From a virus, in the IMG/VR virus record IMGVR_UViG_3300045988_141150: a stretch of DNA of 64,000 nt, one strand, 5' to 3'. The translations under genes were made by a program, and so were the position numbers. Below are positions 1 to 64,000 of the stretch, piece after piece (the stretch's first letter is position 1; every line of letters starts with the position of its first letter). The notes beneath the pieces were generated by a model. It made no database searches, was not told where the DNA came from, and was given only the letters and a program-made list of their open reading frames with translations.

Positions 1-2
1 TC

Positions 3-160
3 ATGTTTGTACTAAAAATTGTAACAACAGTATGGCTGGCATTAATTGCATTGGGAATGACAAGTGCCACATTAAACGAAAAAGAGACAGTTAGCTCGAG
101 ACTTCTCGGTGCTGCGGTAATGCTCGGTCAAATACTTGCCATAGCATTCATGTGGCAATA
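3..160 (+). CDS. 3' end of a hydrophobic ORF, partial at the window edge (membrane protein, unknown function)
   Basis: Open frame from the window start to TAA at 158-160; translation is hydrophobic (…WLALIALGMTSATL…AIAFMWQ). Confidence 0.3.
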
Positions 161-165
161 AATAT

Positions 166-237
166 AGGGCATTCGCCGAGCGGTAAGGCACAGGATTTTG
201 ATTCCTGCATACGTTGGTTCGAATCCAACATGCCCTG
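166..237 (+). tRNA. tRNA-Gln (anticodon UUG)
   Basis: Cloverleaf with 7-bp acceptor (AGGGCAT/ATGCCCT), 3-bp D-stem GCC/GGC with loop GAGCGGTAA, anticodon arm CAGGA-TTTTGAT-TCCTG, T-arm GTTGG-TTCGAAT-CCAAC; nearly identical in layout to E. coli tRNA-Gln1. Confidence 0.85.
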
Positions 238-591
238 TTCGGGGTTTACTTGGTTCCCCGACATTGGACTTAGTAGTTCCTTTCGCCCTCATAGCGGAAA
301 GCTGTTAAGAGCCGTCACAAGGCTCGTGAGGGTTTAATCGTGTATAATCCCACAATGCACGAGCGTGAAAACCAACCTGTCGTAAAGACATCTGTAATAG
401 GCAGAGTAGACATATATACCCCCTTTAATTAATTGTTAAACTAGGGCAACTCAAATCATATGAGTCTTAGGTGAGGTGCAATCCCTCACATGTCCTTTGC
501 TGTAGGTTTCGTTAGTTCTTTTCTTCCTACAGCGCATACAAATTTATATCTCCGGAGGGTGTTGCCACTCCTTAGACTTCACCCTCATTAT
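238..591. other. Non-coding, hairpin-rich region between bona fide tRNAs; several tRNA-like fragments and stable stem-loops; unassigned structured RNA(s)
   Basis: No ORF with RBS. Seen: GCCCTCA…TGAGGGT acceptor-like pairing enclosing GAGCC-GTCACAA-GGCTC (about 298-345); GTGAGG-TGCAATC-CCTCAC; CTGTAGG…CCTACAG; GAGGGTG…CACCCTC. None completes a canonical 4-arm cloverleaf by eye. Confidence 0.3.
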
Positions 592-666
592 CGGCATGTA
601 GCTCAGTGGTAGAGCAGTAGCCTTTTAAGCTATTGGCCGAGGGTTCAAGTCCCTCCAACCGCACCA
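592..666 (+). tRNA. tRNA-Lys(UUU)-like element with encoded CCA but mispaired acceptor stem (possible pseudo-tRNA or decoy)
   Basis: Perfect D-arm GCTC-AGTGGTA-GAGC, anticodon arm GTAGC-CTTTTAA-GCTAT (UUU), T-arm GAGGG-TTCAAGT-CCCTC, 3' CAACCGC-A-CCA. The 5' strand reads CGGCATG where GCGGTTG is required, so the acceptor cannot pair. Confidence 0.45.
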
Positions 667-768
667 CGTAGATATCAATCTACAAAGTTAGGCTTAACTT
701 GAAAATATTTTATGAATCCAGCAGAAAAGAAAGTTTCTGTTGGATAAAAGCATTAGGAGGCTTTAAAA

Positions 769-1064
769 TGAAATTTTATTCAGAACTAACAAAGGATTTT
801 TATGAAAGTGAAGATGCCTGTAAGCAGGCTGAAAGTAAGTTCAACAAAGAGCTTGCTGAAAAGGAAGCTAAGGAGAAGGCTTTGAAGGCTGAGCGTAAGC
901 AGCGTGCCGAAGAGGTTAACGATGCATACAAGGCTATTAAAGAAGCTGAAAAGCATTACTGCGAACTCCGTGATCAGTTTGTAAAAGATTATGGTAGTTT
1001 CCATATGACATTTACTGATACTGGTAGTTTCTTCTTCGATCCTTTCAGATTTACTATTCTGTAA
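769..1064 (+). CDS. hypothetical Lys/Glu-rich coiled-coil protein
   Basis: ATG at 769 follows RBS AGGAGG; the upstream part of the track ORF lacks an RBS. Confidence 0.5.
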
Positions 1065-1065
1065 T

Positions 1066-1120
1066 GAAATGCGCCGTTTCCCGTTTAACCGATCTTTTAG
1101 ACGGGAAACGGCGCATTTTC
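1066..1120 (+). terminator. rho-independent terminator
   Basis: Perfect 16-bp inverted repeat ATGCGCCGTTTCCCGT…ACGGGAAACGGCGCAT followed by TTTCTTC. Confidence 0.7.
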
Positions 1121-1129
1121 TTCATATCT

Positions 1130-60722: not shown

Positions 60723-60965
60723 GTTATTACCTCCGGAGAAATATAATAATGAAAGGTTTTATCTTTTCCTTTCATTATTATATGACTTTTATTTTGTGTA
60801 AATATATTATAATTACTGACACTTTTTGGATAAAAATTTCACTTACTTAAAATTAAATAAATTTGACACTTTATAATTTTTTATTTTACAATATTTAAAA
60901 ATTTTTGTATAATTATAATATAGAAAGAATATAAAGATAGAAAAATTTTTTCTAAAATAAACAAA

Positions 60966-61684
60966 ATGAAGGTGATTAAAATTTTTATCGTAGGTATTTG
61001 CGACAATAGCGATTAGCAAAATGACTCATTGGAAGAAATAATAAATCAGTATTTTAAAGAATTTAATTTGCCGGGATATATATATATAAATTTACTGATC
61101 CTGGAAAATTAATTGATTCTAATATTGATTATGATGCAATCTTTTTAGGAATTACATTCAAAAACATGGATGGCATTGAAATAGCTCATCTTTTAAGAAC
61201 AAATGGGTATATTGGAAAAATAATTTTTGTTTCCTCCCAAATAAATTATGGAGTAGCTTCTTATGAAGTAAAGGCATTTAATTTCGTCAAAAAACCTGTT
61301 AATAAAGAAAAAATTTTTTCTATTTTACATGAAGTTAGAGAAGGAAAAAGACGTGAATATAAATATTTAGATACTCCTAACGGAGAAGTAAAAATTGATT
61401 TAAATAAAGTATTATATGCTGATATCCAAAAACGAAATTTATGTTGTCATTTAGAAAATGAGGTTCTAAATAGTAAAACTTTAAAAACTTCTTTTGAAAA
61501 TTATATAGGAACTTTAGTTTATCATCCAGATTTTGTCTTTATCCCACCAAGTTTAATTATTAATTTAAATCAAATTAAAATAATGAATAAAGACAATTTA
61601 ACTTTTAGAAATGGTGAAATTTTATACTTTCCTAAAAAAGGTTATGAAGAAATTAATCGACGATGGAAAAATCCATTTAGATAA
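60966..61684 (+). CDS. LytTR-family response regulator (AgrA/ComE-like), interrupted by a −1/+2 frame shift at a (TA)6 repeat; 1 in-frame TAG
   Basis: Receiver N-terminus (MKVIKIFIVGICDNSD…) in frame 0 ends at TAA 61110. The rest of the receiver (…DAIFLGITFKNMDGIEIAHLLR…IIFVSS…) and the LytTR domain (track ORF 61166..61684) are in frame 2. The junction is GGGATATATATATATAAA (61076-61088). Confidence 0.6.
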
Positions 61685-61731
61685 AAAAAAATAAGGGAGA
61701 CATTCAATTAAGAATGTCTCCCTTATTTTTA
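61685..61731. terminator. bidirectional terminator
   Basis: AAGGGAGACATTCAATTAAGAATGTCTCCCTT flanked by A-run and T-run. Confidence 0.65.
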
Positions 61732-62139
61732 TTACTTTAAATCATCATTTGGAGTACGATAATTATTTACTGTAGATTCAATCTTTTCTTGTAAATATTT
61801 ATTTAAATCGCCAAAAGCATTATTTAAATATTCTTTAGCGTCATCGCTTAAAATAAGCAATACCGCTTGATAAGTTCTCTAAAATGCTTCTTTTTGAGCA
61901 GCTTCATCAAACTTGCCTTGTTCTTTAAGAGAATTTACATAAGTTTGATTAGTGGCAATAACACAGTTAGTAATTGTGTCAGTAGCCATTTGCACATATT
62001 TATTTAAAATATCATTGTCAGTTTTCTTTTGTAGTTCTGCACTTTTTGCTTTAATCCAAATAACTATAAAAGTAGTTAAAGCACCAAGCATAGGAATCAA
62101 GCACACTTGAAATAATTGATTAATCAAATTTTGATCCAT
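61732..62139 (-). CDS. holin-like membrane protein; 1 in-frame TAG
   Basis: N-terminal LINQLFQVCLIPMLGALTTFIVIWIKAK TM region; continues past TAG 61879 to TAA. Confidence 0.45.
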
Positions 62140-62173
62140 AATATTATCTCCTTTTTCTTACAATAAATTTATA

Positions 62174-63202
62174 TTAAATCCAAGCCACTGGAACAGGTGT
62201 CCAAGTGCCTGTGGTAGAAGTCCTATATTTAAAAGTACCAGTTTTAGCAGTTGTATCTATCCATATTAAAGGCGCGGTGCCAGAAGCAGGCTATGTAGAT
62301 CCAATATAAATAGAATAATCAGTAGTAGTTCCAACCGTAGGAGGAGTAGCATTATCAACATATTTTTTAGTTGCTAAATCCATATCTGCTGTAGGAATAT
62401 AAGTATTATCCATGGTAATTTTACCATTTGCAGTCATTGTATTAGATTTATTTTTATATACTGCTTGTGTTACATCATCAGGAACAGTTGCTAATTTATC
62501 ATCAATTTGTTTAATAGCACTACTTACTTTATTATTAATAGTTATTTCAGCATTATCTACTGCTTCCTAAATCTAAGCAACTTTTTCGTCTACATTAATT
62601 GCGGCGGCTCCTTCAATACCCATAACCGCAAGATAATCATCAGCTTCACTGGTCCAACCATTTAAAGTAATAACTTTTCCTTCAATGGTATAATGATCTG
62701 TTTCTTTTAACATAATACCATTGTAATATAAAGTTAAAGCACTGCTATCATCAAAATCAAAAGGAATGGTAAATGTATTCTAATTTGCTTTTGCGGTAAA
62801 TACATATTTATTTATAGGTTTACTTATTATATTAGTAGGACAAGTAACATTATGCTCAATTCCATTAATATTTATTGTACCAATTTTACTTCCAGTATCA
62901 TCAATATTTTCATAAGATACTTCTGACAATTCCGCTAAATTACGTCCGTTTTCATCATAAGTAGCATAATCCGCGTGATCAGTATATAAATTTAATCTTT
63001 TATCTTTAGTATCAATATAAAATTTATGAGTGTCTTCTGTAAAATAAGCATATCCTTCTGTAATAGGAGTACTGTCTGCTGTTGTAAATAAAGTTTTTCC
63101 TGAATCTAAGGCAGGAAAAGGAATTTTACCATTAACTACTTCAGCATTATCATAGGAAACTAAATTATTTGAGTTTCCTTTTAAAATTTTAAATAGAGCC
63201 AT
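62174..63202 (-). CDS. tail-fibre/receptor-binding-like structural protein; about 5 in-frame TAGs
   Basis: Track ORF 62780..63202 continues through TAGs to TAA 62174; β-rich, Thr/Asn-rich. Confidence 0.4.
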
Positions 63203-63274
63203 CGATCTTCAATAACTCCTTTCTATAAATTAATGGTATAGAATTAATTAATAATTCTATACCATTTAGTTTAT

Positions 63275-63895
63275 TTATTCAAGAACAATCCAATAAACAT
63301 CCAACCCATTACCACCAACAAATCCTTCTAAACGAGCTAAACGCTCCCAAATTTGTTGAACTACTTGGCTATCATCAATTACATAATAATCTTCTTCTTT
63401 TACAATAGAATCTAAATTGAGCTTAGAATAAATCTAAAGACTTGCTGGCAATGTATTTAAATTATATAATAAATTATTAGAATCTTTTTCTATTTTGTAA
63501 AAAGTTATCATATAATTTAAATTACCAGATTTTTTAGTAGCACTATAATTTAAAACCCAAGGAAAAATAATTTTATCTTTATGAGTTAAAGTATCATAAT
63601 ATGGAACTGGATAAATACGTTTTTCATTGTCAGCATTAATATACTAAATAATACACATCATATTAGTTAAATCCATAGTGTCAAAATATCTATCTACTTC
63701 AAAATAAATAATTTCAGCAGCATGGTCGCCTTCAACTGTAATATAATTATTTTCATTACTAATAGTCCTTGAATTTAAATTTATCTAAACTAATTTTTCA
63801 TCTTCTGGAGCAGGAAAAGCTGGATATTTTACTGGAAAATTTTCATCTTGTATTTGATGTAAAACGCTATAATAATCAGTTGGATTAGTTATCAT
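63275..63895 (-). CDS. hypothetical structural-module protein; 3 in-frame TAGs
   Basis: ATG (reverse complement of 63893-63895) to TAA 63275. Confidence 0.35.
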
Positions 63896-63907
63896 TTATT
63901 TTACCTC

Positions 63908-64000
63908 TTATATCGTAAGTACTCCTGGCTTTGATTTTCTTTCACCTTTTTTAATAATAACAGCCACTTGAGTAATATTTTCATTTATTTCTATTGCGTT
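63908..64000 (-). CDS. 3' end of a − strand gene continuing beyond the window
   Basis: Open frame to TAA (reverse complement of 63908-63910). Confidence 0.3.
   Translation of the reverse strand, partial: NAIEINENITQVAVIIKKGERKSKPGVLTI

Follow-up and report, generated by a model that had tools for sequence, protein, structure and literature searches.

The 64,000-nucleotide stretch analysed here (IMG/VR virus record IMGVR_UViG_3300045988_141150; hereafter the window) very probably belongs to a gut jumbo phage of about 191 kb that uses genetic code 15, in which TAG is read as glutamine (Gln) by a phage-encoded tRNA(CUA) and is unevenly distributed among the genes. Genome-wide use of TAG as a sense codon, probably for Gln, with TAA and TGA kept as stops, had been proposed in an initial annotation made from the sequence alone. 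The first survey of recoding is reportedly that of Ivanova et al. 2014. Recoding, its likely mechanism and ribozyme-flanked suppressor tRNAs are all published (Borges et al., 10.1101/2021.08.26.457843; Peters et al. 2022, PMC9523058; Kienbeck et al. 2024, PMC10879173). Gut phage clades with code 15 (TAG to Gln) are Lak, crAss-like, Jade, Sapphire, Agate, Garnet, Amethyst and Topaz (Borges et al.), and metaproteomic proof of recoding was given for crAss-like phages (Peters et al. 2022). The family described here adds one more well-supported case, with about 20 near-complete genomes, to the TAG-recoded gut jumbo phages.

From position 597 onwards the window belongs to this phage, while the first 596 bases are those of another one and are treated separately below. 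Over positions 597-12096, the range covered by locus L001, the window matches an ENA metagenome contig of 190,948 bp (ERZ28595197 scaffold_23, the source of L001) at 100% identity. The IMG/VR family consists of about 20 contigs of 97-201 kb which are collinear with the window and circularly permuted among themselves, and its nearest members show 93-96% nucleotide identity to the window. The G+C content of the window is 32.5%. A megablast search of GenBank phage records with 22 kb of the window gave no match, and the top matches of DnaE among GenBank phages were DNA polymerase III alpha subunits of the SPbeta-like type (39%). ENA gene calls on scaffold_23 pass through TAG, for example in products of 283 and 335 amino acids (aa) with three TAGs each; a public pipeline had therefore already handled this contig as code 15. 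The segment is described as follows.

597-64000 (no strand): jumbo phage segment in code 15 (TAG sense, TAA and TGA stop), from identity to L001 and coding density

When genes were modelled over this segment with TAA and TGA as the only stops, 77 genes were obtained, of which 61 end in TAA, 16 in TGA and none in TAG; as had been stated before, no gene must end in TAG. Coding density from position 597 was 0.90 in code 15 as compared to 0.81 in code 11, which yields 95 fragments instead of the 77 genes. In-frame TAGs numbered 72-76 and were found in 26-28 of the genes, in keeping with the earlier count of more than 25 genes split by TAG only. The range in the number of TAGs stems from a few uncertain start codons. 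Within coding sequences (CDS), 76 in-frame TAGs were counted, against zero TAA and zero TGA, the last two being zero by construction. Genes that carry TAG include the following.

2098-3958 (+): 283-aa protein with SAM-like and NPPF-like motifs and no Pfam match, and 335-aa GmrSD_N protein; three TAGs each
22944-24245 (+): endolysin (Phage_lysozyme2 and Amidase_2) with nine TAGs, the most recoded gene in the window
32370-34104 (+): GIY-YIG endonuclease (four TAGs) and 220-aa protein (two TAGs; called ThyX before, without Pfam support)
36799-38854 (+): 177-aa protein (two TAGs) and DnaB-like helicase (two TAGs; DnaB, DnaB_C)
40596-42344 (+): RecJ-like DHH/DHHA1/RecJ_OB exonuclease, six TAGs
43301-45822 (+): 153-aa protein (two TAGs) and RecD/PIF1-like helicase (one TAG between its two helicase domains)
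51399-55130 (+): NrdD (TTG start at 51399; three TAGs), 225-aa protein (two TAGs) and NrdG-like activase (one TAG)
56731-57783 (+): RuvC-like resolvase (three TAGs) and 142-aa membrane protein (three TAGs)
57818-63895 (-): nine late genes, all with TAG, including a holin (61732-62139; phrog_13712; one TAG) and a tail-fibre-like gene (62174-63202)

A codon-usage score trained on TAG-free genes alone was applied to the 50 codons past each in-frame triplet. Past TAG, the mean score in the same frame was +11.6, with 50% free of TAA and TGA, as compared to -9.8 past TAA and -7.9 past TGA. Pfam domains proved continuous across TAGs, namely NRDD (117-735), Phage_lysozyme2 (3-165), Amidase_2, DHH, the DnaB N-terminal domain, GmrSD_N and Fer4_12 (the NrdG-like activase). 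The TAGs at 34015 and 53610 (NrdD), at which two reading frames had seemed to end, run on in frame to TAA or TGA. Low-complexity runs quoted in support of Gln are present as described, YP-TAG-Q-TAG-YP in 60276-60722 (-) and IQ-TAG-TAG-R in the endolysin. Placement of TAG along the CDS was uniform (Kolmogorov-Smirnov test, p = 0.56), and there was no C-terminal excess. Two TAGs close to the C terminus (codon 759 of the NrdD open reading frame (ORF) and residue 188 of ORF 36748-37332) face sense codons in relatives, and hence need not be stops. These data support TAG as a sense codon, with TAA and TGA as the only stops. Two of the gene names given earlier fared less well: the genes called ThyX and methyltransferase do contain in-frame TAGs, and the SAM-like and NPPF-like motifs are visible, but neither has a Pfam match even at E ≤ 1. 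For annotation of this region translation table 15 is needed, as table 11 fragments about one third of the genes, the endolysin, holin, NrdD, DnaB and RecJ-like genes among them.

Use of TAG differed strongly between genes. TAG accounts for 11% of the Gln-like codons overall, and the observed heterogeneity (G = 151) was reached in 0 of 5000 permutations. The following genes and regions are free of TAG.

4231-20704 (+): 24-gene block (129 Gln codons), including DUF2828/DUF7788, MVP-like, RlaP, three Metallophos, DRB0094-like ligase, NADAR, Pnkp-like kinase and Band_7
25445-30487 (+): GyrB-like and GyrA-like topoisomerase II subunits and RNase H; no TAG in the CDS, and orthologues in relatives mostly TAG-free
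42398-43237: lysozyme-domain gene
46743-50756 (+): DnaE-type polymerase (1337 aa; 50 Gln codons)

Given the overall share of 11%, the absence of TAG from the 129 Gln-like codons of the block 4231-20704 has a probability of 2e-7, and its absence from the 50 of DnaE one of 0.003. The nine minus-strand late genes, on the other hand, use TAG for 22 of 76 Gln-like codons (29%; enrichment P = 2e-5). TAG is carried by the endolysin, the holin, all nine of these late genes and a 2583-aa structural gene beyond the window, and by some replication genes too. Exceptions among the lysis and structural genes are the lysozyme-domain gene and two TAG-free tail-fibre-like genes on L001. The latter two (L001 3010-5864; one of 447 aa, the next of 422 aa and with a faint Mtd_N match) differ in this respect from the neighbouring structural genes. 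The 2583-aa protein, which has 28 in-frame TAGs, is encoded immediately beyond the window end (L153 255-8006).

In published code-15 phages structural and lysis genes are always recoded and replication genes variably, with 26-71% of genes recoded depending on the clade (Borges et al.). The same is seen here, the share of recoded genes (34%) lying within the published range. A host with the standard code would first translate the TAG-free genes, and the TAG-containing late and lysis genes would become translatable only after the suppressor is made. The TAG distribution fits this published early/late model, with a timing that we infer.

It is possible, if on balance doubtful, that the TAG-free genes instead reflect codon optimisation of highly expressed genes, in which a slow and rare TAG would be avoided, and not early expression under the standard code. 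What speaks for codon optimisation is a set of seven dispersed TAG-free genes with extreme codon bias, located as follows.

1281-2096: unannotated 271-aa protein
4231-8373: DUF2828/DUF7788 and MVP-shoulder
12506-13885: RNA ligase
19319-20704: Band_7
32041-32310: 89-aa protein with a weak, sub-threshold Cas9_a match
34571-35518: unannotated 315-aa protein

In these genes the ratio of CAG to CAA is 78:4 and that of AAG to AAA 189:41, as compared to 80:408 and 219:1096 in the other 70 genes (Fisher P = 6e-46), and their G+C content is 0.36-0.50. Given the CAG:CAA ratio, they shun the common CAA as well as TAG; they are possibly host-adapted early genes, very highly expressed or recently acquired. 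DnaE, GyrA, GyrB and most of the block 4231-20704, however, have ordinary AT-rich codon usage and yet no TAG, and it is the lysis and late structural genes that are richest in TAG, as in the published temporal model. The idea that TAG-free genes result from a low-abundance suppressor tRNA, put forward in the initial annotation, is one of two tenable explanations. Codon optimisation and the temporal model are not mutually exclusive: avoidance of TAG owing to high expression is plausible for the seven biased genes, while the temporal model fits DnaE, GyrA and GyrB better.

Evidence on the amino acid inserted at TAG came from comparative alignments. Window proteins encoded at 24-46 kb and 53-64 kb were aligned to about 60 related IMG/VR loci, and the subject codon opposite each TAG was read. 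Facing the window TAGs were TAG (331), CAA (82), AAA (19), GAA (18), GAG (16), CAG (13) and AAG (13), and never TAA or TGA. CAA and CAG were the dominant non-TAG codons (95 of about 230), as expected from the earlier assignment to Gln. Where TAG sites vary among genomes of 93-97% identity, CAG or CAA is the usual replacement, and the opposite change was seen as well. Log-likelihoods were calculated with each site/codon combination counted once, which dampens relatedness, and with substitution profiles from the same alignments. Gln had the highest likelihood, 22 log units ahead of the next residue (Gln -266.8, Glu -289.0, Lys -291.5, Ser -341, Tyr -380, Trp -386, Leu -401). In the reverse comparison, TAGs of the relatives face Gln of the window in 55 of 174 events, a fraction equal to the self-conservation of Gln in these alignments (0.31), whereas the background frequency of Gln is 3.4%. 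The CAA:CAG ratio opposite TAG (82:13) corresponds to normal Gln usage and not to mutational proximity, which argues for functional equivalence.

Individual sites agreed with this. The TAG at residue 195 of ORF 33433-34104 (CDS codon 192) is replaced by CAA or CAG in 10 of 11 non-TAG relatives, that at codon 550 of the NrdD ORF in 16 of 17 relatives, and that at codon 23 in the entry 36799-38854 (listed with DnaB and DnaB_C domains) faces CAA in 14 and CAG in five relatives. When the TAG sites of NrdD were compared with homologues in the PDB, Met, Phe/Tyr and Gly were found, and this alignment was uninformative on the residue. Judged from codon correspondence, TAG most probably encodes Gln.

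A sense codon for Glu or Lys, arising for example from a CUA tRNA that is glutamylated and poorly amidated in a transamidation host, is very improbable. These two residues gave the second and third best likelihood fits, though behind Gln by 22 (Glu) and 25 (Lys) log-likelihood units; and their codons prevail in relatives at three sites (residue 188 of ORF 36748-37332, codon 477 of the NrdD ORF and residue 95 of ORF 32364-33383), against at least 11 well-conserved sites at which CAA/CAG is the sole or dominant alternative. The closest isolate NrdDs do come from Clostridia, but the proportion of CAA to CAG opposite TAG mirrors ordinary Gln usage.

The suppressor tRNA was not found in the window itself. 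ARAGORN, Rfam (up to E = 5) and a relaxed custom scan agreed in finding no tRNA(CUA) in it, as initially noted, and none was present in the 8.7 kb upstream on L001. Downstream of the window, 10 kb and then 20 kb of relatives contained no tRNA, the 2583-aa structural gene being located there instead. A first upstream walk with an N-terminal tail-fibre fragment found no relatives, and a guessed pattern of a Gln-type suppressor (GCGGTAAGGC-N7-TCTAA) gave 25 IMG/VR matches, none from this family. Two candidates were rejected as false positives: the single match of the relaxed scan in the window and its flanks, which is AT-rich and lies inside a gene, and an ARAGORN call of tRNA-SeC(tca) in L220, which lies inside a coding sequence. 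A further upstream walk from the tail-fibre gene revealed a tRNA(CUA) of 90 nt in all six close relatives examined (L206-L209, L211, L213), and a 31-nt segment of it recurs without mismatch in seven contigs (159-197 kb) which are 93-96% identical to the window. The expectation that the suppressor lies elsewhere in the genome was thereby borne out in relatives. The alternative location offered at the time, an RNA cluster at 238-591, was not: Rfam (E ≤ 1) and ARAGORN report only a tRNA-Gln(UUG) and a truncated tRNA there, and the stretch is that of the other phage.

The 90-nt tRNA(CUA) is encoded in a second large array of at least 18 tRNAs, where it is second to last, between tRNA-Val and tRNA-Tyr, just upstream of the tail-fibre genes. 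It scores 57.8 bits with the Rfam tRNA model. U1 and U72 are unpaired in it, and it has G2-C71 and G10; its anticodon loop is CUCUAAA and its discriminator G73, the variable region measures 21 nt, and CCA is not encoded. Relatives of about 81% identity carry a different tRNA(CUA), of 75 nt and with CCA, which is similarly placed, with no further tRNA between it and the tail-fibre genes. From colinearity with L001, the suppressor would lie about 14 kb upstream of position 1 in the genome of the window. Such a phage-encoded amber-suppressor tRNA most likely would decode TAG.

Known amber suppressors of E. coli include supE, a tRNA-Gln with anticodon CUA, and su7, a tRNA-Trp with anticodon CUA that is charged with Gln. 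Identity elements for the glutaminyl-tRNA synthetase of E. coli include U35, G2-C71, G10, G73 and a 1-72 pair that is weak or missing, and these recur in the 90-nt suppressor. Its anticodon arm, (C/G)CGGU-CUCUAAA-ACCG(G/U), is like that of an E. coli tRNA-Trp in which CUA replaces CCA. We take these likenesses as a lead only and not as a test. In contrast to supE and su7, the suppressor is phage-encoded and has a long variable region, and C3-G70 in place of G3-C70. If the long-armed 90-nt tRNA does accept Gln, its architecture is unusual for a Gln acceptor.

Several points weigh against a Gln-charged phage suppressor and against its coupling to an early/late division of the genes. The tRNA is known from relatives and not from the contig of the window, and about 85 kb of the genome of about 191 kb lies outside the sequence covered. 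Long variable regions are typical in bacteria of Leu, Ser and Tyr tRNAs and not of Gln tRNAs, and the body of the 90-nt suppressor is unlike the Gln tRNAs encountered in this analysis. Transamidation is the route to Gln-tRNA in many Bacillota, so that charging of a CUA tRNA with Gln would be less straightforward. No gene for a release factor or an aminoacyl-tRNA synthetase was seen in the sequence covered. At a highly conserved G-x-IG site of NrdD, TAG faces Phe or Tyr in solved structures, and yet CAA or CAG in 16 of 17 close relatives. Lastly, several of the TAG-free genes do carry TAG in more distant relatives; the TAG-free state is thus not conserved there, and the early/late partition is not strict.

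The tRNA-based doubt leads to Tyr, Ser or Leu as the meaning of TAG, since the class II-like suppressor of 90 nt stands beside a 90-nt tRNA-Tyr, but this is exceedingly improbable. Length and variable region of the tRNA, and Tyr/Phe opposite TAG at the NrdD G-x-IG site in PDB homologues, would suit such a reading, and G73 is also the discriminator of Ser tRNAs. Tyr, Ser and Leu, however, were found opposite window TAGs in only two, five and four of 97 cases, their log-likelihoods are 75-135 units below that of Gln, the acceptor and D arms of the suppressor differ from those of the neighbouring tRNA-Tyr, and the 81% relatives carry a class I tRNA(CUA) of 75 nt. Pyrrolysine, suggested by the ARAGORN label Pyl from the anticodon alone, was rejected: only the CUA anticodon is shared, whereas the D loop (with GG) and the T loop (GGTTCGAATCC) of the suppressor are normal, its variable region has 21 and not 3 nt, and it is to Gln that the TAG positions correspond. 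Neither pylS nor pylBCD was among the annotated proteins. The view that the standard code applies and that the TAGs are lesions of pseudogenes or mistakes of sequencing or assembly, for which nothing speaks beyond the presence of in-frame stops, is already refuted by the recurrence of identical TAG codons in 10-19 independently assembled contigs and by the occurrence in frame of TAG only, never TAA or TGA, and is also at odds with domains intact over the TAGs and with a cognate suppressor tRNA in relatives.

Directly behind the suppressor tRNA a candidate theta ribozyme, i.e. a hepatitis delta virus (HDV)-like ribozyme, was found in the relatives. Sub-threshold Rfam HDV matches start exactly at the 3' ends of tRNA-Sup and of tRNA-Ala (26-28 bits; gathering score 44). 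The element behind the suppressor scored 26.1 bits with HDV-F-prausnitzii, under the gathering score of 44. In L207 the candidate starts at 1363 and the tRNA-Sup, which has no CCA, ends at 1361-1362, so that the candidate cleavage site falls within 5 nt of the tRNA 3' end; tRNA-Ala in L224 shows the same ribozyme-abutting arrangement. A complete fold was obtained manually, with P1 GGTGCT/AGCACT (6 bp), P2 AAACAAA/TTTGTTT (7 bp), P3 ACC/GGT (3 bp), L3 TCCTCGC, P1.1 GG:CC and a J4/2 CTAA with cytosine first. A loose HDV descriptor gave many chance matches in AT-rich DNA, and no credible one in the window. According to this fold, the candidate would cut out the 3' end of the suppressor.

Theta ribozymes abut the 3' ends of phage tRNAs, 20% of which are suppressors and only 4.5% of which encode CCA; 96% of the phages concerned are predicted to use code 15, and an RNA ligase of the DRB0094 family is enriched 140-fold in them (Kienbeck et al. 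2024, PMC10879173). The present family shares with these systems a predicted minimal HDV-like fold from the first base past a CCA-less tRNA-Sup(CUA), a second copy after tRNA-Ala, a gut Caudoviricetes-type genome in code 15 and a DRB0094-family-like ligase. It differs in the Rfam score (26-28 bits vs 44) and in that the candidate lies outside the window, in relatives only. The ligase gene and a set of RNA end-healing and sealing-like genes between 10009 and 19017, all of them TAG-free, are located as follows.

12506-13885 (+): DRB0094-related RNA ligase (TIGR02306 E = 8e-11, below cutoff; PF21189 OB-fold; PF09414)
10009-10815: RlaP
11009-11791 and 16470-17189: Metallophos
15757-16200: NADAR
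17948-18472: Pnkp-kinase-like
18457-19017: Metallophos_2

The kinase, Metallophos, RlaP and ligase enzymes may heal the tRNA end left by the ribozyme. Rather unlikely is the wider proposal that the suppressor was exchanged within the lineage (75-nt class I with CCA vs an unrelated-looking 90-nt class II-like tRNA without CCA and with a theta ribozyme) and that its maturation ties the TAG-free block to the code switch. If it holds, maturation of the suppressor would depend on the ribozyme cutting, after which the cyclic phosphate would be removed and CCA added, the TAG-free genes for the Pnkp-like kinase, Metallophos, RlaP and DRB0094-like ligase would plausibly provide end repair, and the 16.5-kb block would be linked to the code switch. 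The candidate ribozyme connects the phage family with the theta-ribozyme/suppressor-tRNA unit.

Other small structured RNAs were seen in tRNA clusters of the family (L001 8102-8230, L224 8411-8461). Just past tRNA-Leu(UAA) is a RAGATH-33 RNA, which at 126.8 bits exceeds the gathering score, and a twister-P1-like match reached 41 bits, below gathering. Weak YrlA (Y RNA-like) matches in the family tRNA array (L224 4534-4655; 33 bits) were below threshold.

As compared to the published code-15 gut phages (Borges et al.), the present one likewise has in-frame TAG and a phage-encoded tRNA(CUA), here in relatives, and its genome size of about 190-200 kb is inside the range of Jade and Sapphire. No release factor was found, as in most published genomes. 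It differs in having no close GenBank relative and in the 21-nt variable region of the suppressor in the close clade. The family is usable as a test case for published questions, namely suppressor charging, handling of host RF1 and timing of lysis by recoding.

A search with NrdD returned Clostridia proteins as the closest from isolates (60-64%). Inference of the host from NrdD is confounded, as most of the top 'genome' matches are phage contigs binned into metagenome-assembled genomes (MAGs). Family contigs with an NrdD identity of 98% (L229-L233; for example CAMELE010000001.1, 163,874 bp) reside inside 'MAGs' that represent species in GTDB and bear the labels Mollicutes, Clostridium, Bacilli or Tenericutes. 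Phage genomes are hence binned as bacteria among GTDB species representatives, which calls for caution about data quality when this reference genome collection is used.

A second caution about data quality concerns the beginning of the window, where the first 596 bases are part of a chimeric join.

1-596 (+): foreign segment, from a different phage family of about 40-60 kb, with an ORF end, tRNA-Gln(UUG) at 165-238 and a conserved element of about 350 nt at 239-591, from IMG/VR identity
592-666 (+): hybrid tRNA across the join, its Rfam match confined to model positions 6-65

Positions 1-618 are 100% identical to two contigs of another phage family (L082/L061) and 90-95% identical to about 100 further IMG/VR contigs, the contigs of that family being roughly 30-67 kb long. 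Positions 1-596 had no match in the upstream sequence of L001 or L003. The sole overlap of the two sources is a 22-mer, TGTAGCTCAGTGGTAGAGCAGT, at 597-618 within the tRNA gene. The hybrid tRNA takes its 5' acceptor strand from the other phage, and its body and 3' strand from a tRNA-Lys(UUU) of the jumbo phage; its acceptor stem is unable to pair. With ARAGORN the Lys tRNA was called, intact, on L001, whereas the window gave no such call. The join at 597-618 looks like an assembly chimera, a recombinant being less likely. As positions 1-596 belong to the other phage, neither the tRNA-Gln(UUG) nor the RNA cluster at 238-591 is informative on the recoded phage.

The non-coding element of about 350 nt at 239-591 has a tRNA gene of the other phage on either side and is present in about 100 IMG/VR contigs (80 distinct copies at ≥90% identity), with conservation above that of the flanking tRNA. 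RNAalifold predicted 89 pairs, among which one-sided changes of the GU type are frequent and breaks rare, and Rfam contained no match. The tRNA that follows the element in this family has anticodon AAT or ATT depending on the contig (L082 8321-8393, L098 1266-1338, L013 8080-8171). A tRNA-Stop(tta) called by ARAGORN in one contig of the family looks AT-rich and doubtful.

Finally, two tRNA genes and two further gene arrangements were seen in the jumbo phage segment of the window.

1130-1206 (+): tRNA-Met(CAU) of the proximal tRNA cluster (ARAGORN, Rfam)
4109-4185 (+): tRNA-Cys(GCA), the last of the proximal cluster (ARAGORN, Rfam)

Directly 3' of the tRNA-Cys gene, at 4231-8373, an MVP-like gene (MVP_shoulder and Vault_3) stands beside DUF2828/DUF7788, an unusual pair for a phage. 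Amid the minus-strand late genes, a truncated response-regulator/LytTR gene is located at 61067-61684 (+), which is TAG-free and has a G+C content of 0.24.

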